Part shown: piece by piece, positions 2,353 to 37,275 of the stretch | How positions within the stretch are numbered: the first letter of the stretch is position 1 | Layout of the letters: each line of letters opens with the position of its first letter | From: Symbiopectobacterium sp. RP | GTDB taxonomy: Bacteria > Pseudomonadota > Gammaproteobacteria > Enterobacterales > Enterobacteriaceae | Direction: 5' to 3' | NCBI RefSeq assembly: GCF_050472005.1 | Contig: NZ_JBGOGS010000001.1 | Span: 1,279,935 to 1,319,934 of the forward strand | Length of the DNA: 40,000 nucleotides | The notes under the pieces: model-generated | What the model saw: only the letters and a program-made list of their open reading frames with translations | What the model was told of the DNA's origin: nothing | Database searches by the model: none | Made by a program: the position numbers and the translations under genes

Positions 2353-2988
2353 TTAAAATAGCGAGCCTAGAATTCCGATACCTGCACCGATACCAGCCCC
2401 CCACGGCGTAGACATGCCCAGAGCACTAGCAATGCCGCCGCCAGCAAGAGCACCACCAAATCCACCAGAAATGCTCTGCTGTAGCGCCGATGGCCTATTA
2501 GCGTTGGCCGCGGCGAGCGCCGCGTTCTGCTGCAATAACTGCCCAGTGTTGTTGGTGTAGGTTTGACCTGCGTTGGCTTGCCCTTGCAATGCTCCCAATC
2601 CGATGTTTGCCAAATTGTTCGCATTATTCATCTGGCCGGATAGCCAGTTCTGTCCTAGCGTGGGAGCGATGGACGACAACTGGTTTCCCGTTGCAGTAGA
2701 GCCTAGTCCGCCTGTAGCTTGTGCCGAGCGTAAAATCTGGTTACGCGCCTGGTCTGCCAAGCCCTGATATTGTGCGGAGTTGTAATACTCATTCAGCGCT
2801 TTGTTCTGACCGTCAAGGGATGAGTAATCCTGCAACTGAGTGACGTACTGCTGTGCTAATGGCGTAAAAGGCGAAAGATTATTCATCACCGTCTGCCATT
2901 GCTCTCTTTGTAATTCTGTGGCTCTGTTCGTGGCGTCAGCTTGTGCCGCCGCACCATTATTTTTACTTCCGCCTTTACCGCCGCCCAT
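2353..2988 (-). CDS. Ejection protein, P22 gp7 position (211 aa)
   Basis: Gly/Asn/Gln/Ala-rich low-complexity protein with a hydrophobic Gly-rich C-terminus (GGALAGGGIASALG...GAGIGILGSLF). Called by synteny. Confidence 0.6.
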   Translation of the reverse strand: MGGGKGGSKNNGAAAQADATNRATELQREQWQTVMNNLSPFTPLAQQYVTQLQDYSSLDGQNKALNEYYNSAQYQGLADQARNQILRSAQATGGLGSTATGNQLSSIAPTLGQNWLSGQMNNANNLANIGLGALQGQANAGQTYTNNTGQLLQQNAALAAANANRPSALQQSISGGFGGALAGGGIASALGMSTPWGAGIGAGIGILGSLF

Positions 2989-3430: not shown

Positions 3431-4132
3431 TCAGTTAATCAGGCCGTGCGCGCGTAAAGCATCTTCAAGCGCCTTTGTGCGCTGACGAGCTTCAACGAGG
3501 CCAGCAGCCAGCGCCTGAATATCTGCCTGCGAACAGGTTGCACCTGCTGCATATGACTGGTCAGCGTTGAATGCGCCGAGAAATGCTGTGCCGGCTGCTG
3601 CCGTCCATCCGGTTTGCTGCGGGCCTAATACTTTGGTGCCGTTGACAGAGTAGGATGCAGCCACGTTTAGCGGGCTGGCGAGAGATTGGGGCGCGGTGGC
3701 AGACCTGGATGCATAATCAGTCTGGATAGCTGCTACGCTGGTTTGCAGAGTTGTGATGTTGCCCTCTGCTGCCGTCATTCTCGTCTGAAGGGGGGTTATA
3801 GCCCCCTCGGCGCTAGTTACTCTGACATCCAGAGCGGCGATCGAATTGGTGTTGGCTGTTATTCGAATCTCATGTCCATCAACATCAATGCGCAATTGCG
3901 CAATCCGGCCCTCGTGGTCGGCAAGTGTCACGTTCTGAGCATCATTCACAACCTGAGCGTTATATGCGCCATCGGCGGCCTGATTTGCCTTACCTGCAAC
4001 CTGAGTGAAGTCCATCGCCTGGCTAAGCACGTATTGCTGATATGCCGGGGAGAACCCGACCGGAAGAGATACAGCCTTGATACTGACAGCACGAACTTTC
4101 ACAGGCGTGTTTAGTGAGTCATCAGCCATCAC
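3431..4132 (-). CDS. Tail needle protein, P22 gp26 homolog (233 aa)
   Basis: Same length as P22 gp26. Shared strings as recalled: LADHE.RI.QLRIDVD.HE.RITANT, SQSLASPLNV, YSV.G.KV.G, QTGWTAA.GTA, ALEDALRAHGLI. Confidence 0.9.
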   Translation of the reverse strand: MMADDSLNTPVKVRAVSIKAVSLPVGFSPAYQQYVLSQAMDFTQVAGKANQAADGAYNAQVVNDAQNVTLADHEGRIAQLRIDVDGHEIRITANTNSIAALDVRVTSAEGAITPLQTRMTAAEGNITTLQTSVAAIQTDYASRSATAPQSLASPLNVAASYSVNGTKVLGPQQTGWTAAAGTAFLGAFNADQSYAAGATCSQADIQALAAGLVEARQRTKALEDALRAHGLIN

Positions 4133-5547
4133 TCAACCCTCACTTGTAGCCCTGATAGGGTTACCGGGCTTTTAGTAATAATTCTGAACTTGAAGCCGAT
4201 GTTTTTGCGCACACGCCCAATCCGACGCCATAGCGCCCTCTGGTCATAGCGGAACGGTGCATTCCACGGCACCATTTGTTCCCTGCCGTAGTTGATGCCA
4301 TCAGTGGTGGTAGAGATAAACAGCCGTTCAGCGAATTGAGCAACGCCCGTCGATACTTCAAGCTCGAGGTCGAACAGTCTCGCGTTGTCCGCCTTGATGA
4401 GCGGGGAATAGAGCAAGTGCTCCTGTTGTTTGTCATATTGGGCAGACGATGCAAAATTAAGCTGTCCGGTCACAGATTCCAGCTTGTCACCGCATGTGAT
4501 AGCGCCGCCTTCGTAGAAGAAATCAATCCCACGGTACACGTCATCAAACAGGCCCGTTTTCAGGATGGCCCACTGTGGACCGCTCTCGCTCACCGACGAA
4601 TCAAACACCAGCACATGACGTGGCAGGTGGATAATCAGCAGTTCGTGAGAGTCGAAACGCAATGACTCCATGACGCCAGTTGATAGCTCAGCGTTAGTGT
4701 ATTCGCGTAGCGTTTTCTCAGTCGTTGCTGATGCGATGGGTTTGGCCTGACCAGAGTCAATCAGGTAGACAGACGGTGCGCCTGTTGCCGGGTTGCTGAT
4801 AATGGCGAATGCGTCCATAAACGGGCACTTGCAAAACGTCCCAGCTATCCCTTTTGTGACCATGTACGCCGGGTTAGCGATGTATACCGCCTGACCCGCA
4901 CCAGAGTTACCCGTCAGAGAAAAATACTCAGTCGTGGTTGTGCCGAAGCACACAACCATATCACGCCATGAACCAACACCAATAATGCCGTCTGGTTGTG
5001 ACTCCGCACGGTATTCAGCACGGTATTTATCGGGAAAAGCCTCATCATCCAAATCAGAGATGAAAAACGAATCAGTCCCATCTTTCGACCACACGTAGTT
5101 ACCGCGTGACCAGCAGATATCACGCGATGAGCCCAGCTGATACTGCGTGGTGCCACTCGATACAGGCCAGTTAGCAACAGTTTTCACCGTGCCATCGTAG
5201 CCATATTGCACAACCTGACCGCCGACGATCACCGCCTGAGAGTTGCGGCTATGCGCCATCGGCACACGACCAGAGCCAGACAACGAACCAACCACCGACG
5301 CGCCACGATACAGACTACCTCCACAAACGCGATATACGGCATTCTGAGCAGTGTTGAACATTGCGCCACGCGATATACCTGCAACATCCGATCGCTTGTC
5401 TATGCCGGGGAATGAGCGCAAATATCCGCTGCTGTTCAGCACTTGCCTGGGTGTCGCCAACATATTGACCGGAAGCAGATCAACATAGTCAGCGTCCCGG
5501 AAGTTTTTTCCAACGCCCTTAATCAGGGGAAGTTGTTGTATCGGCAT
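4129..5547 (-). CDS. Tail hub / head-completion protein, P22 gp10 homolog (472 aa)
   Basis: Same length as P22 gp10. Sits between the gp4 and gp26 homologs, with an ATGA-type overlap with the needle gene. Confidence 0.85.
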
Positions 5548-8448: not shown

Positions 8449-10626
8449 TTATTGAGGTGATTTCTCGGCTACGCTGCCGGAAGGTGTATTTTGTCTCTGC
8501 GATTGCAGGTGATTGGCCACGTCCAGCCTCTGCTTGTGCTGCTGGTCTGTGCCTTTAAGAAGCAATTCAGCGTTGGCGCGAGCGTCATCGCTGTTCTGTT
8601 GTTGGAATTTACCCATGAGAGACAGGAACTCACGGAATGCGGCTTGCTTATCCAGGTCCATGTTGTTGAAGATTTCAGCAACCCTGGCGGCGTTAAGCTG
8701 GTTCTGGCCTTCGACCTTCGCTGCATCAACCTGGATTTGCATCTGTTGGTTCTGCGCTTTGAGCAATTCAGCCTGACCTTGCAGGTATACGCCCTGAGCC
8801 TGCATTTGTTCAGCTGATGGCTCTTGCGGTTGTTGTTGCGCTTCCTTGACCATCTGTTGCTCTTCTGGTGTCTCTGGCTGTTTCAGGCCCATCATTACCA
8901 ACTGTTTGTTTGCATACTCGCGCATTATCTCGACGCCTTTCCCGTCAAGTAGCGTGAAATATTGCAGCAGCAACATCTGGAACTCTGGTGTGCCTTGCGG
9001 CACAGAAGAAAGTAACGCCTGAATCTCCTTCCGGTTCTGCTCCTTCATTGACTGGAAGGAGGGGCCAACATCCGTGTACGTCTCGTAACGTCCGCGAACA
9101 TCATTGAGTGTGATGACCTGACCAGATTGATAGTCAACAACCTGAGACATCAGTTGAACGTCTTTCTCGCTGCCATCCTCCAGCGTCATTGATACTGATC
9201 GCGGTACGTCATAGATATCGTTGACGATGGATGAATATATCTCCCCGTCTCGCCGCATCGCTGTAGCCAAATTGTCGAGAAAAACATACGTTTCAAGATC
9301 GGCGCGCTGGTTTAGCTGATTGACCGTATCGAATGCCACTTGTCCATTAGCCGCTTGCTCATCCACACCGAGGCTAGCGACCTCTTTCACTGAATTAGTC
9401 GCAGCTTCCAGCATGTAGGCGTTGGCCTGCGGAACCTCTGGGTTTTCCATGTATGCGATGGGCTGTACGGGTAACTCACCGTTACTCTCGTCAGTGCGGT
9501 TCATCAGATAGTACGGGTAGTCATCATTACCGCCGTACATGTATTCGTAGCCTGCGATTTGCTCCGGCCAGAATATCGGTTTCTTTTTCGGTGTCCGGGC
9601 TACGATATCGGCGTTAAACGACATAATCATGTTGCGCAGGCGCTGACCATCCTTTGTCAGTCTGACAACTCCCTCGTAAACTTCTTTATCGCCGACGAAT
9701 CCCCACTCACCGAATACCGGAACAATCGGGATATGTTCACCCGCTTTTAGTTCCCGGTCTTTCAGTATTTCCGTAAGCGTCAGAAGGGTTTTGTACACAC
9801 GGCGACGCTTGACGTTACGCTCACCGATTTTAACCATGCCGCGCTCGGACAGTTCGTCGATAACATCCTTGATATCGCGCTTGAAATAGCTTACTGGTTC
9901 GCCTGTCAGTGGGTCTTGATAGATGAATACTGTTTCCTTCTTTTCCTCTACCTCGTAGTGTTCACCGACATAGAAGACCGATTTAGTTATCCATGGAAAC
10001 AGGTAATGGCTATCCGGCGACTGGAATGTCGGCATGTTCTCAGCATCCAGCCCGTGCTCTTCTGCAAACGCTTTCCACCCATCCTGACTCATCGCACAAA
10101 TTACCGTGCAATGTTTGGCGTCAGATTTGTCCATTTGTTTGCTGTTGCAGTCCCAAACCACATGAGAGCACGCCTCATGAATGGGAACGCGGCGGATAAT
10201 CTGATTATTGCTCGTCGGGTCCTGGTCTTCGTGCTCTGTGACGATACGCCACGCCCCTACGCCCGCCTCAATTTGCTCACGCACGGCAATGTTGACGCTG
10301 ATTTTCGCGGTGTTATGCCGCATATCGGTGCGATACATCCCCATCAGAATGTCGGCGGCGTCAGAGCTAGCATTGTCTTTCGGCTTGAACAGCACATCAA
10401 TTGGGTTCTGTCGCATTTCTGCAACGAGTTTACGCACAACGGGGCGAACAACATCAAATTGCCCGCGATATTGCAATGTCGTGTATTGACTTAGCCAGTC
10501 ATCCCACTGCGACACTCGACTAAAGAACAGATCGTTTGTCGCCTCGTTTCTGGCCTCTTTGCTGTAACACCAGTCCCTGTCAAATTGACAGAGAATGTCA
10601 TTCAGCCGGGTATTGTTATCGGCCAT
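8449..10626 (-). CDS. Portal protein, P22 gp1 homolog (725 aa)
   Basis: Same length as P22 gp1, with long identical runs as recalled: [92 protein letters not shown]. Confidence 0.97.
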
Positions 10627-12131
10627 TACCTACTCCGTGGGATTGGTTTGATTGGTGCGGGGATTTTCTTCTCTTTCGGCTGCTTGATGTCGCGCATCAG
10701 CCTGGCAAAGCGACGCATCATGTAGCCGTAGCGAACGGCAGACAGAACGTCATCGTTAATCTTGACTATCTTTCCATTTTCATCGCGGTGATAGAGGCGG
10801 AACTCTTCAAAGAATGGCTCGCAGGTATTGAACACTTTGAACCTACCATCGAGCATCATGTCACGCAGTTCAGTGATTCCTGGCTCAACGGCGTTACCAC
10901 CATCGGGCCACGTTGCATGCTCAGGCAGCATCATGAAACCGGCATCAGCATATTGAGCTTTAAGTTGCTCACCGCCGCCCTTCTCATGCTGATTGCCATC
11001 GTGAGGCCACGCCGTGGGAATTTTACTTGCCCATGATTTGACAGCGCCCCATGCCTGAACCGCTGTTTTCTCTTTGTCTTTCCACACGCGAGCGACATAT
11101 ATTGTGTCCGCGTCCTTGTCCCACCAGAGTTGAATCTGTGCTTGCGGGTGATCCCATCCGAAATCCATCGCGTCGATAACATAGAAATGATCAGGGCATC
11201 CAAACGGCTGGCACTTAATCGTCTCTTCCGGTATCTGGAAGATGCGACCGCTACCCATCGTCGGGATGCCACGCGCACGAGCTTCACGCTCATGCTCTGG
11301 ATAGCCAGCAATGATTTGCTCTCGCAGCTCATCAGAATAATGTTCAGCGTCATAAATGGTCATGTTGACCACCTTCTGCGCCTTGCTGGGATTTTTGAGG
11401 AACTTGATTACAACGTCAGACATACCCATCAAGGGGGTGAATGTCAGGATTGAGAATTGCCCGTGCTTGTTAGTTCGCGTGAGACCTTCGCCATAAATGC
11501 CATACGGCGGCTCTTCGTCGAACCACACCCCATGGATGGTGTCACCTTGCCAACGGGTGCGACCTTGTGAGTACGGCTTGAAGTAGCAGATAGACATGCC
11601 ATCTTCAACACCATCGGCAGTGTGGTGCCTGACAAGCAGGTGATCGACAAGGTTCGGGAAGAAGGGTGACTTCTTCCAACCAATGATGTCCTCTTTCGGG
11701 ATTGATCCGTAGCCGGGTTCATCATTCTCTTCGATACGACCACACAGAATGCGCTGTGTGGTCTTCGTTACTGTCTCGTTAGTCTCACCACCGACCCAGA
11801 ACATAACCGGCTCATAGAAGCGCTTACCTTTCCAGTCCTCGCCGTATTTACCGTCATCTGGATATCCTTTAGTGCCGGGATAGCGCCCGGTGAGATGAAA
11901 GGCCACCTCAGCACCACCGGTATAAGATTTACCCAACTGGTTGCCAGCCATAAAGCATCGCTCGGGGTAATCATGCCCTGCGTCGATAAATTCTCTTTGC
12001 CTGCTGTATGGAGTGAACCCGTAAAGCAGGTGGGTTTTGCGGTAGTTCTCTTCTTCTTCCAGTAATTCGAGCAATTCTATCTGCTCGTCTTCTGTTAGCT
12101 CATCGATATCAATCGTCGCTGCGTTTGCCAC
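10626..12131 (-). CDS. Terminase large subunit, P22 gp2 homolog (501 aa)
   Basis: Walker A-like MAGNQLGKS. Length is close to P22 gp2 (499 aa). Sits between the terS and portal genes, with overlapping starts and stops. Confidence 0.93.
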
Positions 12132-12594
12132 GTAAAAGCTCCTGAATTCGGGAAAGCCGCTTGCCGCGATCTCCCTTATCAGGTGTCACGTCTTCAACCT
12201 GCGACTGTTCTTTGAGGCCCAGGTCTCGGGCAATGATGTTTGCGTTGAGCAGGTCAGCAGCAGCGCCAGAGAATTTCTGGTCGTAGATGACTTTCTCCGC
12301 TCGCGTAGTGAGCACCATAAAATCTTCACGAGCGCGATATAGTTGCCACGTGCTTTCGGCAATATCCAGGAACAGGCATAGACCCGTTAATGTCATTGCT
12401 CGCATCTTTGCAATGGGTTCCTGCGTCACTTCCCCTTGATACGGGAAGGCCTTCATTTCCCACAATGGGTGCTCTTCTACCCACTCGAAGTATTCACAGC
12501 AGGCTGACCATAGCGCCTCGGGCGAATCGAACTTGGGGTTGCGCCCATGACTGCTACGAGCCTCCCAGAATCGGTTACCCTTTGGCGCTGCCAT
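12109..12594 (-). CDS. Terminase small subunit, P22 gp3 homolog (161 aa)
   Basis: From ATG 12594 (GAGGAA 7 nt upstream) the product starts [22 protein letters not shown], matching P22 gp3 as recalled. C-terminal region [39 protein letters not shown] matches too. Confidence 0.92.
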
Positions 12595-12604
12595 AATCAT
12601 TTCC

Positions 12605-12838
12605 TCATCCAAATAGTGTCAGCGCTTCTTTTGCCTCGCGGATAGCTTTTTCAGTGCGAGCAAGCGGGGTTTGTTCGGCGGCTGCGAGTGTGTACTGGTC
12701 TTTGAACAGCTCGTAATTCAGCTTAACGCCAGCAACAAATTCAATGGCCTTTTCTGCCGCTGCTGTGTCAGATTGAACCAATCGCAGCAGTTCAAGATTC
12801 ATTTGCTGAACGTCTGTTAATTCGGTGATTGCGGTCAT
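12605..12838 (-). CDS. Hypothetical protein (77 aa)
   Basis: ORF with GAGGA 9 nt upstream of the ATG, immediately upstream of terS. Helical, no recognised family. Confidence 0.5.
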
Positions 12839-23995: not shown

Positions 23996-24807
23996 AGCGT
24001 ACCCTCCCTGATTTTCGTCAGGGTCTTGCGTTGAAGCAGGTAATCAAAATTAGCCACCCAGCCGCGATCATTGTCGCCAAAGTGGAACGGCCTGGCAGCA
24101 GCCATAAACGCCCTGACGTAAGACTTGAAGCCGTCCTGGTTTGGCGTGGCCAGAGATTTAACCAGAGCAGCAAGTTTCCGTTTTCGCTCGTCATTGGCTT
24201 CAACAGCGTGAGGCAGTCTGTCACCCACGGCTTCGTTGTAAGCGTTCAGGTAGTCGTCGTATTTGATTGGGTTTGATTTTCGTTTAGAGGGTTTACCCCC
24301 CTTCACACTTTCACCCGTAGGGGGTAAGGGGGTATTATTTATTTTATCTTTAAAGATATCTTTTGTGTGTTCCGTTTTGGTAACACTCGGTGTATCCAAT
24401 TTGGTAACATTTTTTGTTCCCGATTTGGTAACAATGTTATCTATTTGGGAACACTCCGGGATCTCCCATTCTGATATGTTTTTGTTTGGGCCAATTTTGC
24501 TTCCGTCTTTCACCAGAACTTTCATGGCGATAAGCTCATTTTTGGCAATGTTGGCCTTTGGCCTGCTGATTCTGCAAAGCTCGGCTAATTGACTGTCAGC
24601 AATGCGATCCATTTTCTTCTTGAAGCCGTATGTCTTTCGGCATACAGCGTGTGCCATCTTGGCTTGATTGCGAGTCAGATTAGCGCCGATCAGTTCTTCG
24701 TAAAGCTCCATCGCCAGCATGATGAAGCCATCATCAGTGTCAGCCACGCGAGGCTCCTGTTGCCCCTGCTCAGGGCCGGGAAATTGATATATCTCAGCAG
24801 CGTTCAT
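23992..24807 (-). CDS. Replication initiator, lambda O / P22 gp18 type (271 aa)
   Basis: N-terminal Phage_rep_O-like region ([13 protein letters not shown]...[20 protein letters not shown]). Internal iterons. Same length as P22 gp18. Stop overlaps the helicase start. Confidence 0.85.
24330..24460. repeat. Origin of replication: four iterons plus adjacent AT-rich tract inside the initiator gene
   Basis: ATTTGGTAACA-type repeats at 24375-24386, 24399-24410, 24423-24434 and 24443-24454 (spacing 24, 24, 20 bp). Flanked by the AT-rich segment 24330-24370. Confidence 0.65.
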
Positions 24808-25496
24808 GCGGCGTTCCCCACGGCTTTCAGAAGACCCGCATCAAGCATCTTCCGCGTCAGCCATTGCTGGCCCTTGCCGGTGATCTTCGTCGTGAATGAG
24901 ATTTGAATGCCGTGATTGGTGTCTACGGGCGTCTCACGGACAGTGAAATAACCTCTATCCATGTACTCCTGCATCGGGACGTTGCGGCGAGCGCCAGAAG
25001 CGATCAGCACCCGCTTATCGCGCAGCCACGCAAAGAGCTTGTTGGGGCCGAGTCCTACGGTTTTCGCGTAGTTGCCGATGAGCACGCCAGCAGCCTCACC
25101 GACACGATCAGCAAACTCGACCTTTGGCGCGGCGATAGCTAACTGGTTTTCTAACTGCTGGCGCTGTTCAACCTCTGCCGTCAATGCTTTTAGGGCGGAC
25201 AGGTAATCCGTTGGTAGTTGAGTGAGTGATTCCAACTCCTGCCAGCGGTCAACTACTGCGGCGGTGAACTCAGGGGATAATCTGGCAACCAGCACTAGAC
25301 TGTCCCGTTTGTTCAGTTCGTAATAGTCAAATTGTTGCCCTCGATACTCAAATTTTAGTGGCTCAATTTGAGCGGCTAAAATTCCACCGCCAATAAGGTC
25401 ACGAATAACGCGTAAAACGTTCTTGTGTTCTTTCCGCACAAGATCGGCTATCTCACGGCTACTCATTGTTGGGTTTACTGTCGTAGATAATTGCAT
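24804..25496 (-). CDS. Rha N-terminal domain plus ANT/KilAC C-terminal domain regulatory protein (230 aa)
   Basis: MSSREIADLV.KEHKNVLR.IR is a Rha-type N-terminus. C-terminus AKTVGLGPNKLFAWLRDKRVLI......N.PMQEYMDRGYF is the ANT-type pattern. Confidence 0.8.
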   Translation of the reverse strand: MQLSTTVNPTMSSREIADLVRKEHKNVLRVIRDLIGGGILAAQIEPLKFEYRGQQFDYYELNKRDSLVLVARLSPEFTAAVVDRWQELESLTQLPTDYLSALKALTAEVEQRQQLENQLAIAAPKVEFADRVGEAAGVLIGNYAKTVGLGPNKLFAWLRDKRVLIASGARRNVPMQEYMDRGYFTVRETPVDTNHGIQISFTTKITGKGQQWLTRKMLDAGLLKAVGNAA

Positions 25497-25507
25497 GTAT
25501 AATTACC

Positions 25508-25822
25508 TCAGAAATCGATTGAGTATTGCCCTGAATCCTCACCTGCCAGTGGGGATTTTTTCTTTGTCAGAATCAGCGCGACTTGCTTAGCCAAATGCGC
25601 CAGCTCGTCGTCGTTAACTCCCCATTCCAGAATCGCTAGAGCCAGACTCATCAGCCCGAAAAACGAGTGCTTCTCCTTCCCCTTGGCGACTTTCATCCGG
25701 CTTATCTGGGATTCGTCCAGGTTCAGAAAATCAGCGAACTTTCTCTGACCGAATAACGCCAGCTTGCTTAGAAGCTGCGATTCAATCTGGCGTGCTTTCT
25801 TGCGTGTACTTGTGATGTCCAT
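25508..25822 (-). CDS. cII: CII-like transcriptional activator (104 aa)
   Basis: IES.LL.K.A..G.RK.A......ESQISR.K....... LA.LEWGV.DDE.A.LAKQVA.ILT.KK parallels lambda CII. Position after cro. Confidence 0.85.
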   Translation of the reverse strand: MDITSTRKKARQIESQLLSKLALFGQRKFADFLNLDESQISRMKVAKGKEKHSFFGLMSLALAILEWGVNDDELAHLAKQVALILTKKKSPLAGEDSGQYSIDF

Positions 25823-25997
25823 TTGTGATACTTTCCTTGTTGAAAAAAACAGGTTATCGGATGCGCGTGTAGAGACACGGCACCTGTGTTTTGGTGATCA
25901 ACAGACGTGACGAAGCCGTGAGCCAGTCACAGTGAGTTTGTTACTGTGGGATGTTGAGTTCGCCACGTTGTCGGTGGCTTCCGTAGGACGAGTGTCC

Positions 25998-26010
25998 GTT
26001 GTAAAGAGCG
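25998..26010 (-). promoter_or_regulatory. boxA-like element of a nutR candidate
   Basis: Minus strand reads CGCTCTTTACAAC, 11 nt after the cro stop. It is followed by the small hairpin GGAC-ACTC-GTCC. Confidence 0.5.
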
Positions 26011-26020
26011 GTGCTGCTGG

Positions 26021-26236
26021 TTAGGCAATCTTATTTACGGACGGAAAAAGATCATCTAACCCTATTGATATACCTTTTGAATTAATTACCTGAACTATCT
26101 TATGAGCTAACTTGATATCTATGTTTCGTCTACCGTGTTCATAGTGGCAAATGCCTCTAGGGGTACATCCCATCATTTTTGCGAGCTCTGTCTGAGTTAA
26201 GTGAACTCGGTTCCTGAATTGCCGTAATTTGTTCAT
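26021..26236 (-). CDS. cro: Cro-like HTH repressor (71 aa)
   Basis: ATG 26236 preceded by GGAGGTATAC. The XRE-type HTH LTQTELAKMMGCTPRGICHYEHGRR is divergent from the cI-like gene. Confidence 0.8.
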   Translation of the reverse strand: MNKLRQFRNRVHLTQTELAKMMGCTPRGICHYEHGRRNIDIKLAHKIVQVINSKGISIGLDDLFPSVNKIA

Positions 26237-26254
26237 GTATACCTCCAAGTGGCA

Positions 26255-26333
26255 AGTATACATAACGTAATCAGATTGCACAACATGATTATCCATTATG
26301 TGTATTTATTGGTTTTTATACAAAGCGTATAAT
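26255..26333. promoter_or_regulatory. OR region with PR and PRM candidates
   Basis: Operator arms AGTATACATAACG (26255-26267) and CATTATGTGTAT (26294-26305). PR (minus): TTGTGC-17-TATACT. PRM (plus): TATAAT at 26328-26333, 6 nt before the cI ATG. Confidence 0.6.
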
Positions 26334-26339
26334 AAAGAA

Positions 26340-26756
26340 ATGGAAAGAGCTAAATGGCATGAAGTCGCTAAAGCCCGGATGAGGGCTTTGCGCATAACAC
26401 AAGATGAGTTAGCGGAACGCTTGGGTGTCACAAAGGGTGGAATTAGTCACTGGCTAAATGGACGGCGTGAGCCTCGAATAGAGGATTTTTGTAAGATAAT
26501 GGCGATCTTGGGTTTGAACAAACTCATTCTTAATAATGATGGCTCATTATTGGTAGATAATGAGCGTGAAGCCATGTCTCCTACAACATCCTCTATACCC
26601 ACCTTGACTGAGGAAAAGCTAGAACTTCTCAAGCTGTTTGATGACTTACCTGAAGTCGAAGCTAAGCGTTTTCTTGTAGAGATGAAGATCAAAAAGACAC
26701 ACTATGATGCTCTTTTTGAAGAGATGTACAAAAAAAGAAAACAAAAAGTGCTATAA
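26340..26756 (+). CDS. CI-like prophage repressor, HTH only, no S24 peptidase domain (138 aa)
   Basis: From ATG 26340. XRE HTH ITQDELAERLGVTKGGISHWLNGRR. C-terminal 70 aa are charged and helical. No Ala-Gly site or Ser/Lys protease module seen. Confidence 0.75.
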   Translation: MERAKWHEVAKARMRALRITQDELAERLGVTKGGISHWLNGRREPRIEDFCKIMAILGLNKLILNNDGSLLVDNEREAMSPTTSSIPTLTEEKLELLKLFDDLPEVEAKRFLVEMKIKKTHYDALFEEMYKKRKQKVL

Positions 26757-26877
26757 TATTAATTAAATAGTGGTTATTGCGATACTCCCTTCTAATTTTC
26801 ATATCCCTTTTCCCCTAATTCATAGAACAGAAATAAATTATCATAAAAATCAGTAGGATAAACTTTCTCACACAAAA

Positions 26878-26921
26878 AGTATACATAATGTAATTTACAT
26901 TAAAAAACCATTATGTATACT
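26878..26921 (+). promoter_or_regulatory. OL/PL candidate
   Basis: Perfect 13-bp inverted repeat AGTATACATAATG / CATTATGTATACT (18-bp spacer) sharing the OR arm sequence. TTTACA (26894-26899) - 16 nt - TATACT (26916-26921). Confidence 0.6.
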
Positions 26922-27089
26922 TAATCCCATCACCCCACCAGACAGCCTTCAGCCAGACGGTGGAACACCAACCCGCAACGGCAATACCCCGGCAGGCAAG
27001 ACCTCGAGTTACCCGCCGATTGCCTGAGCGTAAGTAGCCAGCCCGAGGCACACGAACATGACGGCGGTTGTGGTGATTTAGTAGACAAC

Positions 27090-27114
27090 AAAAAAGCGCC
27101 CTACTGGACGCTTC
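27090..27114 (-). terminator. Rho-independent terminator of the 172-aa gene
   Basis: Minus strand reads AGCGTCC-AGTA-GGGCGCT (one G-U pair) followed by T6. Confidence 0.6.
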
Positions 27115-27126
27115 GCTCTTTAACAA
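27114..27126 (+). promoter_or_regulatory. boxA-consensus-like sequence in the PL leader
   Basis: CGCTCTTTAACAA on the plus strand, about 190 nt after the PL -10. It differs from the rrn boxA consensus TGCTCTTTAACAA only at the first base and abuts the minus-strand terminator. Confidence 0.35.
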
Positions 27127-27182
27127 TCTGTATCCCCAACACAATGCCAGACTGGTAGTAAGAGCAAGCTGGTTGCTCAAAT

Positions 27183-27701
27183 TTATCGACCACCTCCGCT
27201 AAATCGGGATCCGTATCCGGCAACCTGTGTCGGTTTCTTGGGAGGGAGTTTATTCATCTTGAAGTCATTTTTACATTCGGGGCAGTAATGAACATGAAAT
27301 CCACTCATCGCCGTAGTCGTTACGCCAGGCTGAAGTATCGATATTTTATTTTGATGAAAACAATGTGGGCAGGCATTCACCGCGGTCTCACCATCACTCA
27401 AAACAATATTCTTCGAATAAACAAGCGTACCCGAATCAACTTTATTCAGAGAATAATCTACCGCCTGAACTTTAAAGTTTTCGAACTCTGCAATTTTTGC
27501 TTTGAGAGATGTATTCATTTCTTGGTAAGTGCCCACGAGCTCAACGAGAAATACGCATTCACACTGAATAGACGCAAGTTTTGAATTTAACTCATTAACC
27601 GCAGCGTTTACTTCGGCCTCGGTTTTGGCGTCATTGATCAGTTTGGCAAGTTGCGCAGTTTCACGAATTGCAGCCATGGCCACAGATAATTCAGCGATCA
27701 C
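27183..27701 (-). CDS. Hypothetical coiled-coil plus zinc-ribbon protein (172 aa from GTG 27701, or 164 aa from ATG 27677)
   Basis: Clean ORF antisense to PL with its own terminator. The N-terminal ~85 aa are helical. The C-terminal part has CPHC-x25-CPEC and a basic Gly-rich tail. Family not recognised. Confidence 0.7.
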   Translation of the reverse strand: MIAELSVAMAAIRETAQLAKLINDAKTEAEVNAAVNELNSKLASIQCECVFLVELVGTYQEMNTSLKAKIAEFENFKVQAVDYSLNKVDSGTLVYSKNIVLSDGETAVNACPHCFHQNKISILQPGVTTTAMSGFHVHYCPECKNDFKMNKLPPKKPTQVAGYGSRFSGGGR

Positions 27702-27845
27702 TTTGAATTCTCTTCTGACTGTTGGGGATATCCAGATTAACGCATTCCTGCCTGTTGGGGAATAGCAGGAACCACTGCCGCCTGAGGTGGAGAAGTAAAC
27801 CAGGCATTAAACCACAGAAAATTAATGAGTCTGCTCTGTTTTAAC

Positions 27846-27873
27846 CGCTCTTTTTACAACGAGCCTCGTGCTC
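27846..27873 (+). promoter_or_regulatory. nutL candidate (boxA-like plus small hairpin)
   Basis: CGCTCTTTTTACAAC resembles the nutR boxA-like CGCTCTTTACAAC. It is followed by GAGC-CTCGT-GCTC and lies 135 nt upstream of the N-like gene. Confidence 0.45.
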
Positions 27874-28007
27874 TACAGAAGGCACCGACAACGTGCCGAA
27901 CCTTTGCCCAGATGTTTTTGGGGTGTGGTGGGCTGAATAAAAATTATAGCCAACACCAGGACTATACCCGTTCACCACACCACCAAAACCATCTATTGGA
28001 GGGGAGC

Positions 28008-28394
28008 ATGGCTACTATCATTTACCGTAAATCCGTTAATCCCGTTAATTGTGTTAGCAAAACCAACGCCGCTATTCGCCGTCATGCCAGACGCAAGGCA
28101 GAAGCCATCCGGCGTGAACTGCTGGTATCACGCATCGATAAAGCTTTAGGTCAGAAGCCAGAAAGACGCAAAGCGCTTAACCGAATTGAAGTGGCTTTCA
28201 AGCGCAAACGTGCGCCACGAATTAATTTCAATTTACTGGCTGGATTCAGAGAGCAAATTAACCGTTTCGCCGAAATGTACGACATGGTTAAGCGTCTTAA
28301 CCATCGCATCTGGTACAGCAAGCCGAAAACCGAGTATGGCATTACCGCCAGAGCAAGGCAGACGCATACATCGTGGGGTGTTCGTAAAGTTTGA
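28008..28394 (+). CDS. N: N-like antitermination protein (128 aa)
   Basis: ATG 28008 after GGAGGGGAG. N-terminus MATIIYRKSVNPVN..SKTNAAIRRHARRKAEAIRRE parallels the P22 gp24 arginine-rich motif (MTVITYGKSTFAGNAKTRRHERRRKLAIERD as recalled). Confidence 0.7.
   Translation: MATIIYRKSVNPVNCVSKTNAAIRRHARRKAEAIRRELLVSRIDKALGQKPERRKALNRIEVAFKRKRAPRINFNLLAGFREQINRFAEMYDMVKRLNHRIWYSKPKTEYGITARARQTHTSWGVRKV
28302..28362 (+). repeat. 61-bp direct repeat, copy 1 (inside the N 3' end)
   Basis: CATCGCATCTGGTACAGCAAGCCGAAAACCGAGTATGGCATTACCGCCAGAGCAAGGCAGA matches 29153-29213 at 58 of 61 positions. Confidence 0.9.
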
Positions 28395-28475
28395 GGAGCG
28401 GTCTTATTGCCTGCAGCAAGTCGTCATATCCCCAGCAGGTCACAGCAAGTCAGTTAACGTAACAGCGAGGTAAGT

Positions 28476-28742
28476 ATGCAAAACGATGACATGAAAGAGT
28501 ATCGCAGAAAGTTGGGTGAATTCTTTTATCCGTTCCTTGGAAATGTTGAGTTAGGGAATGTTTCAGCATTGGAAAACACCACAACCCTCATTGATGCATT
28601 TATTAATTTCAATGAGATTGGTTATTTTAACCGACCGACTAAAGTTGGAAACACCAAAATTGGCGGACAAACAACGCCGCCATCAAGTGAGTCAGAATGC
28701 GAATCAGGAATCGGGAAGAGGGAGAAAGGTCAGGACGACTAA
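28476..28742 (+). CDS. Hypothetical protein (88 aa)
   Basis: ATG with GAGGTAAGT upstream. Ser/Glu/Gly-rich acidic tail. Family not recognised. Confidence 0.5.
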   Translation: MQNDDMKEYRRKLGEFFYPFLGNVELGNVSALENTTTLIDAFINFNEIGYFNRPTKVGNTKIGGQTTPPSSESECESGIGKREKGQDD

Positions 28743-29014
28743 ACCCTGTTCAGACTCCAGGCTCTTCCATCAGATTTTGTGACTAACACATCAGGGCGAG
28801 GCTTTACCTTTTTGGCGATTTCCAAAACTTCATCCCTAACATCGGATTTACTCATATTCTTATCGCATATGTATTCTGCATTTGGCAGTTGATAGGTTTT
28901 CCTATTTGAATTTATCTCTTTGGAGTAACCATTTCTGCCCATTTTTTCATGCAGGTTATCATAGTCTTCAGAATCTGCATCATGCAGCTCGACCCTGACA
29001 GTAAACTGAGCCAT
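28739..29014 (-). CDS. Hypothetical protein (91 aa), convergent with the 88-aa gene
   Basis: ATG 29014 with AAGGAA upstream. Product MAQFTVRVELHDADSEDYDNLHEKMGRNGYSKEI....RKTYQLPNAEY... Its stop overlaps the 88-aa gene stop by 4 nt. Confidence 0.55.
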   Translation of the reverse strand: MAQFTVRVELHDADSEDYDNLHEKMGRNGYSKEINSNRKTYQLPNAEYICDKNMSKSDVRDEVLEIAKKVKPRPDVLVTKSDGRAWSLNRV

Positions 29015-29152
29015 TTCCTTAAATTGTCTGTGGAATAACCAGGTTATCAGGTTCCTTTGTCTGTGGAAAGCAGGGAAACCACGCGCCGGGCGTGGATAAA
29101 TATCCCGGCACATACATTAGACAAGCCACCTGGTTCGGCTTTTTTATTACAT

Positions 29153-35541: not shown

Positions 35542-37275
35542 TCAGTTGCCAGACAGATACGAAGTGATAGTAGCAGAGTCAACGCCATGTCCATTTGTCA
35601 TAATAATTTTAAGATTTTTGATTAATTCATGCTTGAAACTATCGGATTCCAATAAGTGTTTATCGACCCAATATCGATAGGGATTATCTTTAACACGCCC
35701 TTTTACTTGTTCCAGGAACTCACGTGTATGGGCAAAATCTTTAAATAGTTTTCTAACCACTCCGCCATGGTTTTTGTTTGATTTTTTATAATTCTCTATC
35801 GAATTTTGTAAATCAATAGGGTGGTTACCTATGTTTAGCGTTGTAATTATATCTTGAGTTATTCTCATAAATACTGGTTTTGTAAATCCATTATTATTGT
35901 TCCAATATGTGTCATCAGGAGGTAAATTATATAAGAATTCAAAAATCATTTGATCTGGAGGAAGAATGCTTGGAAGCAAGCATAAGCTTCTCTCTTTTTT
36001 TGCTTTTTTTTGCATTATCACTGTTATCGAGAGCAACATCACCGTCTAAGATCACTAGGCTTTTAATAGTAAACTCAGGAATTTTTCTTGCCATTAAATC
36101 TAAGATAGCAGTACAGCTAATATTTATATTTCCTAATGTGTTCAATATTTTGTTTATTTTTCTATTATTTATCAATTGCTTGAAAAAATCGAAACCTTCT
36201 TTATCTTCAAAATAAACGTTAGCTTTTGGAAGGCTAATCTCATCATTGATTTTTACAGTTTCAACATGCAAATCAGCATTGATATCAGCCCAAGATAGAT
36301 TATCCTTTGTTTTTATATCACCATAAGTGTCTGTTAGGTATATTGTTTTAAATACGTTGGCATCTTGTTTAGAACGATTGAAAATACCTTCAATTATTAA
36401 TGGTGAGTGAGAAGTCATGATTATTTGCAAATCATATTTTTTAGCTGCTTTAGCTAGGATGTTAATTAATTCTAACTGAGCAGCAGGGAAGAGGCCTGCG
36501 TCCGCTTCATCAATTAATAAAATACCTCCATGATAATCAGCATAAAGTTCTTTCAGCCTTTTAAATGAAAATATTGCTTGAATTAATTGTCCTACATTAT
36601 CTTCACCAACAGAAACTGATTGGTGGTCATAATTATCGCCATGCACGACCATTGAATCAATCGTCCCTTTCGTGGCTGTTACTGAGCACCCATTATTTTT
36701 AAGTAAGAGTTGATTGCTCATTATTCTTATATCATCAGAATTTTCATTAAGATACTGAACATCCCTTGTTGAGTAATCAGTTCGGAGAGTAATAGGGAGA
36801 AGCCTGGCTAAGCTTAAAAAAATAACAGGATGGGTGACATTTCTACTTTGGTTTTTCCCTTGAATGGAATCATTACCCCTGACTATTGGCCTTGATTTAT
36901 CCCTGTCACTGTAGTCATATAGACCCAATGTTAGCTTTTCAAGATGTTTGTTAGATGCGCCATCATAAACACTAATTCTGACTTCCATTGAACCAGCAGT
37001 ATCAAATTTTTCTGAAAGTCTAAAATGTTCACTGAAAGCTGACTTGAAGCTGCCATTAGTTAATGTCTTATATTGTGTTAAATCAAACTCGGGGTTCTTG
37101 GACAAGTCTTTTGTAAAACTAAAAATCTAGGCGACAATACCAAGAATTGTTGATTTAGAAGTGCCATTTTTACCACAAATAACAGTTAGGCGAGAACCAA
37201 ATTCTATATTTATATTTTTTAGTCCACGAAATTTTACTACGTTTATTTTTTTAGTTTGGTTATTGGATTTGCCAT
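35542..37275 (-). pseudogene. OLD-family / PARIS-like ABC-type ATPase plus TOPRIM-like nuclease gene (~575 codons) with three disruptions
   Basis: ATG 37275 (GAGG upstream). Walker A GKNGTSKST, Walker B ILLIDEADAGL, TSHSP. C-terminal YFEDKEG and VILDGD (Glu plus DxD). Frameshift at A7 (37246-37252), in-frame TAG (37127-37129), frameshift in A8/A7 tracts (35995-36011). Confidence 0.65.

Follow-up and report, generated by a model that had tools for sequence, protein, structure and literature searches.

What does a single gene do that lies antisense within the early-left transcript of a prophage, between the repressor gene cI and the antiterminator gene N, and how does the prophage live with it? 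The gene considered here occupies positions 27183-27701 on the minus strand of a 40,000-nucleotide stretch of the Symbiopectobacterium sp. RP genome (contig NZ_JBGOGS010000001.1, positions 1,279,935 to 1,319,934), called the window in what follows. When this DNA was first read without database searches (the sequence-only reading), the product could not be placed in a family. Profile and structure searches together with a set of invariant residues now assign it to Rip1 (ring interacting pore 1), and we are highly confident that the open reading frame (ORF) encodes a member of that family. Rip1-type abortive infection is probably its function, judging by analogy with the characterized proteins. 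The sequence-only reading had also proposed a single-gene defence or superinfection-exclusion role and had regarded the gene as an undescribed system. Homology to Rip1 bears out the proposed role, but not the novelty: the protein matches PHROG 1244 (E 9e-44; function unknown), and the mechanism of Rip1 and a cryo-electron microscopy (cryo-EM) structure (PDB 9oox) were published in 2026. The window gene adds a member to an already described defence.

The 172-codon ORF was present exactly as first listed, begins with GTG and is full-length. Its start is credible because the homologues share the first residue of the window protein (M1 is nearly invariant in their alignment) and because GTG stands at the start position in 12 of 15 related loci. 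An AlphaFold (AF2) model with a predicted local distance difference test (pLDDT) score of 83 showed a pair of long helices at the N-terminus (residues 2-24 and 28-80) and, after them, a beta-rich C-terminal domain, which carries a presumed Cys4 zinc ribbon. This matches the helical N-terminus and beta-rich middle described from the letters alone, and the CPHC-x25-CPEC motif described with them corresponds to C111, C114, C140 and C143. Scans against Pfam, NCBIfam and PADLOC gave no match above threshold, only sub-threshold noise, and PADLOC-DB v2.0.0 (2023) contains no Rip1 model. Weak zinc-ribbon matches were seen below threshold in Pfam; a weak sub-threshold GajA stretch in the same scans was discounted as noise. 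A search of 5.8 billion proteins returned 118 relatives, of which the named ones were all called "hypothetical protein" and a single one, 295 residues long, carried a precomputed Pfam domain. In an alignment of the relatives, four cysteines are invariant and the N-terminal helix is conserved. The Rip1 family is very large: when 1.84 billion cluster representatives were searched with a sensitive method, 2838 clusters (50% identity) scored at E<=1e-3.

When a profile built from 35 close homologues was compared with the PDB, the sole match below E 0.2 was 9oox_L, "ring interacting pore 1 (Rip1)", with E 8.4e-21 and an alignment spanning positions 6-152 of 170, in which both CxxC motifs and an SILQ motif line up; the window sequence alone, used without a profile, reached the PDB Rip1 entry at E 0.03. 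The entry 9oox is a cryo-EM structure of HK446 Rip1 in complex with the T6 small terminase. A structural search had been suggested earlier along with a defence-database scan, and where PADLOC was without a match above threshold, Foldseek with the AF2 model led to the same protein. Its only two significant PDB matches were 9oox_L and 9oox_M, both with probability 1.00 (9oox_M: E 2.3e-5, template-modelling score 0.72 normalized to the target and 0.55 to the query), and nothing else in the PDB fell below E 0.2. When the window protein was aligned jointly with HkaP, HK446 Rip1, JBD30_030 and five close homologues, Q46, L66, Y83, V94, Y95, C111, C114, I122, L123, Q124, C140 and C143 proved to be invariant, so that (S/T)ILQ, VY and the two CxxC pairs (a presumed zinc site) are kept throughout, and every one of these residues is present in the window protein. 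Searching phage genomes with tblastn detected Klebsiella and E. coli prophage-derived phages at 58-61% identity, hkaP of HK620, HK629 and HK630 at 33% identity (E 2e-21), and Pseudomonas phages of the DMS3/JBD30/MP38 type at 24% identity over ~95% of the length (E 7e-6). A Rip1-type name can thus be given to a family labelled hypothetical in the public records examined, and likewise to its enterobacterial relatives and to HkaP of HK620.

Rip1 and its relatives in other phages

Rip1 was described by Patel et al. (2026, Nature 651:1060), and its properties are given here as summarized in PMC13434031, PMC12908700 and PMC13601566. The original member is a P. aeruginosa prophage protein whose gene lies between the small and large terminase genes (PMC13434031). 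As these accounts present it, Rip1 is a sensor and an effector combined in one prophage-encoded protein that is not toxic alone; phages that escape it are altered in the portal (Pseudomonas phages) or in the small terminase (E. coli phages); 12 copies of Rip1 surround an 11-mer small terminase ring in the cryo-EM structure; the complex forms a pore, as seen from liposome dye release and holes in cells; and homologues are widespread in Proteobacteria, mostly on prophages (PMC13434031, PMC12908700, PMC13601566). The N-terminal part is described as an amphipathic helix, and the C-terminal half as the part that touches the ring (PMC13434031). A "Rip1" mentioned in a preprint on integrative elements is the plasmid RIP113 and is irrelevant here.

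The structurally characterized HK446 Rip1 (HK446_037) belongs to the same family as the window protein. In addition to the profile and Foldseek matches, the two proteins are of similar length (164 and 172 residues) and share the two CxxC motifs, SILQ and VY, and both are encoded by a single gene without a partner that lies antisense inside the PL operon of a lambdoid prophage and adjoins N. They differ in that HK446 rip1 lies downstream of N, convergent with it and in the sieB position, while the window gene precedes nutL and N and is convergent with cI. The proteins are only 23% identical, and the basic, Gly-rich tail is longer in the window protein. JBD30_030, from P. aeruginosa Mu-like phages of the DMS3/JBD30 type, is homologous over ~95% of the length, retains the invariant residues and is likewise encoded on the strand opposite to its neighbours. 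The Pseudomonas tblastn matches fall antisense between JBD30_029 and JBD30_031, which is the reported place of the original Rip1, and Pseudomonas Rip1 is itself the published pore-forming abortive-infection protein triggered by oligomers of portal or small terminase, as outlined in PMC13434031. The JBD30 gene, however, is flanked by terminase subunit genes in a transposable phage and is not in an immunity region, and both host and phage type are different.

Among named phage proteins, HkaP of HK620, HK629 and HK630 is the closest homologue (33% identity) and is also encoded antisense in the PL operon. From the HK620 genome record onward it has carried the label "putative superinfection exclusion protein", given on positional grounds, and a literature search on "HkaP" returned unrelated papers only. 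Unlike the window gene, hkaP lies between hkaQ (downstream of N) and cIII and is without the conserved flanks described below; no match to the boxA block was found in L001 or L002. The comparison with rexAB, sieB and BstA drawn in the sequence-only reading proved apt for position and not for sequence. RexAB, SieB and BstA are also products of immunity-region prophage genes that exclude superinfecting phages or abort their growth, yet they have no sequence or domain similarity to the window protein (Pfam E<=1, PADLOC E<=1). The rexAB genes form a two-gene unit co-transcribed with cI, whereas the window gene is single and convergent with cI, and it is Rip1 alone that senses assembled ring proteins. 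The sieB position in P22 and lambda is the slot held by hkaP in HK620, and rexAB adjoins cI in lambda. Membrane depolarization by RexB is a broadly similar outcome to that of the Rip1 pore.

By analogy with these proteins, the activity and trigger of the window protein would be as follows. The lysogen would make the protein from the cassette's own signals, and the protein would be harmless on its own. Once a superinfecting phage reached late expression, its small terminase or portal would assemble as a ring, around which the C-terminal beta/zinc-ribbon domains of many copies would dock. The oligomer templated in this way would gather the N-terminal helices into a membrane pore, and the pore would collapse the inner membrane before progeny mature, so that the infection aborts.

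A cassette antisense to the PL transcript

The landmarks that had been placed around the gene from the letters alone were all found. A cI-type repressor gene (26340-26756, plus strand; Pfam HTH_3, E 5e-12) is convergent with the Rip1-family gene, and cro (26021-26236, minus) and cII (25508-25822, minus) lie beyond cI on the opposite side. Between the two convergent genes, the plus-strand sequence TTTACA-16-TATACT (26894-26921) is the sole sigma70-like plus-strand site in 26200-28100 and is flanked by a perfect 14-nt inverted repeat (arms 26877-26890 and 26909-26922). Both repeat arms recur at the right operators (OR), between the divergent cro and cI genes (26254-26271 and 26293-26308), and 26877-26923 therefore represents the left operators (OL) and the PL promoter. 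On the far side of the gene lie nutL (27844-27897, plus), with boxA ACCGCTCTTTTTACAAC and boxB GGCAC-CGACAAC-GTGCC (27881-27897), and an N-like antiterminator gene (28008-28394, plus), whose product has the Arg-rich motif NAAIRRHARRKAEAIRRE and a Pfam N_peptide match of E 2e-4 (22.2 bits, below the Pfam gathering cut-off of 27.9). A nutR site downstream of cro (26012..25962, minus; ACCGCTCTTTACAAC...GCCAC-CGACAAC-GTGGC) has the same boxA and the same 7-nt boxB loop CGACAAC, with one compensatory G-C/C-G swap in the stem. The GACAA within this loop, which we take to be the P22 boxB pentaloop, is here closed by a C-C mismatch. Because nutL and N lie beyond the Rip1-family gene, the PL transcript must cross it antisense, as had been anticipated, and runs ~920 nt from PL to nutL and ~1.08 kb to N. 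The sole plus-strand ORF of at least 40 codons between PL and N (27288-27584) is embedded antisense within the Rip1-family gene. Ahead of the cassette, the 5' leader (26925-27086, plus) is relatively rich in G+C and poor in T (C 34%, G 26%, A 26%, T 14%); it holds no plus-strand ORF of at least 40 codons.

This arrangement is not peculiar to the window. For a comparison of context, 15 genome loci and several encoding contigs were taken. Wherever its neighbours were annotated or called, the gene lay on the strand opposite to the phage genes around it: this holds for HK620, HK630, HK446 (in which HK446_037 is antisense within the PL operon and converges with N), PhiR29_2, JBD30, and the loci from Symbiopectobacterium and Lelliottia. 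Additional genome loci were surveyed more crudely, from their ORFs, and most had this layout too, with L013 and L021 as exceptions. At least nine genome loci or phage records have the order seen in the window, i.e. early-left genes, an opposite-strand Rip1 gene, a convergent cI and cro. In L011, OR operator repeats occur between the Rip1 gene and cI, which places OL/PL in that gap as in the window, and a promoter scan of L010 found TTGACC-17-TATATT directed into the 3' end of the Rip1 gene. The earlier picture of an accessory slot between cI and N is thus a general one, with other cargo in SfIV and SfV, and the view that the window gene is an accessory gene of the lysogen type in this slot is supported.

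The gene travels as part of a larger unit. Homology with a second Symbiopectobacterium prophage, whose protein is 85% identical and whose cassette lies elsewhere in the early-left operon, several genes from cI, starts and stops sharply at ~27806 and ~27087. These limits define a mobile cassette (27087-27806, minus) composed of an upstream element, the ORF and a terminator/boxA block. Across 12 loci with proteins 42-61% identical to the window protein, mean pairwise nucleotide identity was 81% for the 105-bp upstream element, 78% for the 48-nt 3' block and 59% for the ORF; the non-coding flanks are better conserved than the gene they enclose. The upstream element (27702-27806, minus) is a putative promoter, operator or 5' untranslated region that contains two TCCCCAACAG repeats and AATCTGGATATCC. 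The CTGTTGGGGA direct repeats noticed earlier at 27719-27728 and 27752-27761 are indeed present upstream of the start and extend to CTGxCTGTTGGGGA (27715-27728 and 27748-27761, 33 bp apart). The repeat 10-mer had 7 matches at <=1 mismatch where 2.1 were expected from shuffles, and both TCCCCAACA copies are conserved in 15 loci. Further upstream, between nutL and the N start codon, a perfect TATAAT at 27950-27942 (minus) lacks an acceptable -35 and was not called by the promoter scan; were it active, the Rip1 gene would have a leader of ~240 nt antisense to nutL.

At the other end of the cassette, a terminator scan recovered the rho-independent terminator seen in the sequence-only reading (27085-27114, minus), with a 9-pair stem (27114..27093) followed by TTTTTGTTGT, and related loci conserve the terminator block. 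The stem has two G.U wobbles on the gene strand that are A.C mismatches when read on the PL-sense strand; the predicted folding energy in the window is -14.2 kcal/mol for the gene strand vs -8.3 kcal/mol for the PL-sense strand. Of 12 loci compared, 11 had the more stable hairpin on the gene strand, by 2.6 kcal/mol or more. On the gene strand, the 3' block reads GGATATCCAGATT(G/T)TTAAAGAGCnAAGCGTCC-loop-GGGCGCTTTTTT. On the PL-sense strand, the weakened hairpin is followed immediately on its 3' side by an exact 13-nt boxA consensus, CGCTCTTTAACAA (27114-27126, plus), the single match in the window at <=2 mismatches. Twelve of its 13 bases are those of the E. coli rrn leader boxA, the first base being different; the rrn leader sequence was confirmed in all 5426 E. 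coli genomes, with a median of 7 copies per genome. The order of hairpin then boxA is also that of rrn leaders, and this boxA lies ~730 nt upstream of the nutL boxA. The motif GCTCTTTAA[C/A]AATCTGGATATCC is kept at the same place in 16 related loci, or 17 with the window. The boxA of rrnG binds NusB:NusE about tenfold more tightly than the lambda nut boxA does (PMC2800207).

The two ends of the cassette also share sequence in inverted orientation. The sequence TATCCCCAACA at 27131-27141 is an inverted copy of the upstream repeat TGTTGGGGATA at 27720-27730, and the inverted repeat bracketing the ORF grows to ~20 nt once one 2-nt gap is allowed. The 11-nt repeat was rejected as a signal, being by itself within chance expectation. 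The pair GGATATCCAGATT/AATCTGGATATCC, inverted copies in the 3' block and the upstream element, is conserved in other loci.

Flanks of this kind also occur with other cargo. The slot is delimited by GCCTGTCTTTTCACCAC... and ...GCTCTTTAACAATCTGGATATCC, and in SfIV (L025, 2599-3350) the same two flanks hold SfIV_36, an unrelated antisense gene of 144 codons, together with a small sense ORF, while in SfV (L026, 2890-3130) part of the upstream flank is kept beside a different cargo. The slot is therefore a cargo site of which Rip1 is one occupant, and the genes found there in SfIV and SfV are, from their position, candidates for other lysogen-expressed functions. Just beyond the slot in PhiR29_2 (L003, 4114-4337 minus), a sub-threshold Rfam match to the STnc100 small RNA was noted (42.4 bits vs a gathering cut-off of 47), which is on the PL-sense strand there and has similar sequence in SfV and ST64B.

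A prophage with a sensor of terminase or portal rings raises a regulatory question, namely how it avoids being triggered by its own rings. The prophage in the window is P22-like, with a gp3-type small terminase, a T4-type large terminase, a P22 portal, cII and a Rha/ANT protein, and both its gp3 small terminase (12109-12612) and its portal (8449-10626) are ring-forming partners of the kind that Rip1 recognizes. The constant antisense placement, the conserved flanks and the boxA suggest that the answer is transcriptional. In the lysogen, PL would be repressed by cI and the Rip1 gene expressed undisturbed; on induction, convergent transcription from PL and its antisense RNA would shut the gene off and so spare the prophage's own gp3 and portal rings. 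Passage of polymerase in the PL sense would be favoured by the weakness of the terminator on that strand, the rrn-type boxA and the nutL site just past the cassette. The weak terminator and the boxA would help polymerase to cross ~0.9 kb of untranslated antisense RNA before N loads at nutL. Extended to many enterobacterial temperate phages, the proposal is that the PL leader holds an exchangeable antisense cargo slot whose cis elements allow N-independent passage from PL and silence the defence on induction. We offer this tentatively and think it rather less likely than not. If true, it would amount to a built-in switch that turns the defence off as the prophage enters its own lytic cycle. As a secondary result, the conserved slot with its cis elements may be new; it is not described in the sources consulted.

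Alleles, and explanations other than defence

Several points weigh against Rip1-type abortive infection as the function of the window protein. Identity is low, at 23% to HK446 Rip1 and 24% to the Pseudomonas protein, and trigger specificity or activity could differ for that reason. The N-terminal helix appears just moderately amphipathic by a simple hydrophobic-moment scan (0.43-0.47 at residues 7-30, lower elsewhere), with similarly modest values in HK446 Rip1 on the same scale. Scans of the window, L010 and L017 found no sigma70-type promoter upstream of the Rip1 gene, and the best candidate picked out by eye, a weak extended -10 (TGcGTTAAT), is not kept in the other loci. The properties of the family, in addition, are those given in a review, in a meeting report and by the title of a PDB entry. 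Finally, the intact copy in the window could be heading to decay, as the alleles described below illustrate.

One alternative keeps the homology and changes the job: a Rip1 homologue might serve the prophage itself by timing or helping lysis or by regulating packaging, through binding to the prophage's own gp3 or portal ring. The prophage does encode both rings, identity to the characterized Rip1 proteins is low, and the C-terminal part varies between alleles, all of which would fit such a role. The gene is, however, antisense to the lytic operon wherever neighbours are annotated or called and has its own terminator, which is the layout of a lysogen-expressed moron. Moreover, the same slot in SfIV and SfV is filled by unrelated cargo and is therefore dispensable for the phage cycle. 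A role at the prophage's own rings is accordingly an improbable explanation, and abortive infection of superinfecting phages is preferred.

The alleles within the genus bear on whether the gene is still in use. A 97% identical intact copy is present in another Symbiopectobacterium and an 85% identical intact copy in a further one. Compared with two other Symbiopectobacterium alleles, the window gene has a near-identical promoter region and N-terminal 75-125 codons, and the C-terminal part is replaced. Since the C-terminal half of Rip1 touches the terminase ring, an exchange of recognition modules is a reasonable reading of this swap, and the swapped halves of near-identical alleles point to the seat of target specificity. 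In S. purcellii MEX (L012, ~4001-4465), GAA is changed to TAA at codon 14 (E14-to-stop) and the C-terminal half is another one; from its sequence this allele is a pseudogene. Its surroundings are those of the window, with nutL, cassette and PL-leader backbone ~98% identical (leader from 26964) beside a different adjoining immunity region. Symbiopectobacterium includes genome-reducing symbionts, and it is because of this and of the premature stop in the MEX allele that decay of the window copy comes into question.

It might then be supposed that the window copy is already decaying or silent, intact by chance and no longer expressed or functional in its host. This would be in line with the failure to find a recognizable sigma70 promoter and with the stop codon in the closest backbone relative, which is the MEX prophage. 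Against it stand the full-length ORF with all family-invariant residues intact, the two intact copies in other Symbiopectobacterium genomes, and an upstream element and terminator conserved base for base. We therefore give a silent gene only a slim chance, and a working Rip1-type defence gene remains the favoured explanation. Less likely still is a zinc-ribbon nucleic-acid-binding regulator of PL/N or of lysogeny, or exclusion of the SieB, Rex or BstA kind by some other mechanism: the Cys4 ribbon, the basic tail and the weak Pfam zinc-ribbon matches would suit a regulator, and a gene adjoining cI like lambda rexAB, with hkaP in the sieB slot, would suit such exclusion, but no Pfam, NCBIfam or PADLOC family threshold was reached, the only significant match in both sequence and structure is Rip1, over the full length, and the C-terminal half of Rip1 is reported to contact the terminase ring and not nucleic acid.

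Further features of the early region and a leader element in related phages

An Rfam scan of 25700-28500 found nothing, and megablast with 26000-29000 gave no phage match and, vs E. coli genomes, short pieces only. Three further genes in the early regions were noted. The Rha/KilAC (ANT) gene, of antirepressor type (24804-25496, minus), belongs to the PR operon, with cII on one side of it and the replication genes on the other. Downstream of N, a second antisense ORF in the PL operon (28739-29113, minus; 124 codons, no Pfam hit) is a possible moron. Near the far end of the early-left region, an ORF of 388 codons (35939-37105, minus) has AAA_15/AAA_21 ATPase matches of the OLD/Gabija-GajA/AbiEii type, and from these matches it may be a second defence gene.

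Comparison of the PL leaders also brought out a conserved element of ~75 nt at the start of the PL transcript in 52 phage records, among them SfV, SfII, SfIV, ST64B, ZF40, YeP1-3, phiNP, SPN3UB, mEp237 and mEp460. Examples lie at 4580-4675 (minus) in L010, 2499-2572 (plus) in SfV (L026) and 2486-2581 (plus) in ST64B (L027). A covariance model built from 18 phages detected none in the window and, in L004/L009, only a truncated copy; the element is therefore not part of the findings on the window gene. It is not in Rfam 15 and is unannotated in most of the listed records. An identification as an HK022-type put site was rejected, there being no sequence similarity to the HK022 immunity region and one copy per locus. 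The element has a nearly invariant 5' strand, AGGCAGGACGCCCACGAAGUAGCC, and forms two helices in which 94.9% of alignment cells are paired, vs 65.6% in shuffled alignments and 21-49% in slid controls. RNAalifold gives the same helices, and compensatory changes occur in nine of the ten pairs. The element may be a leader RNA that acts on early-left transcription, and it is worth a separate study.

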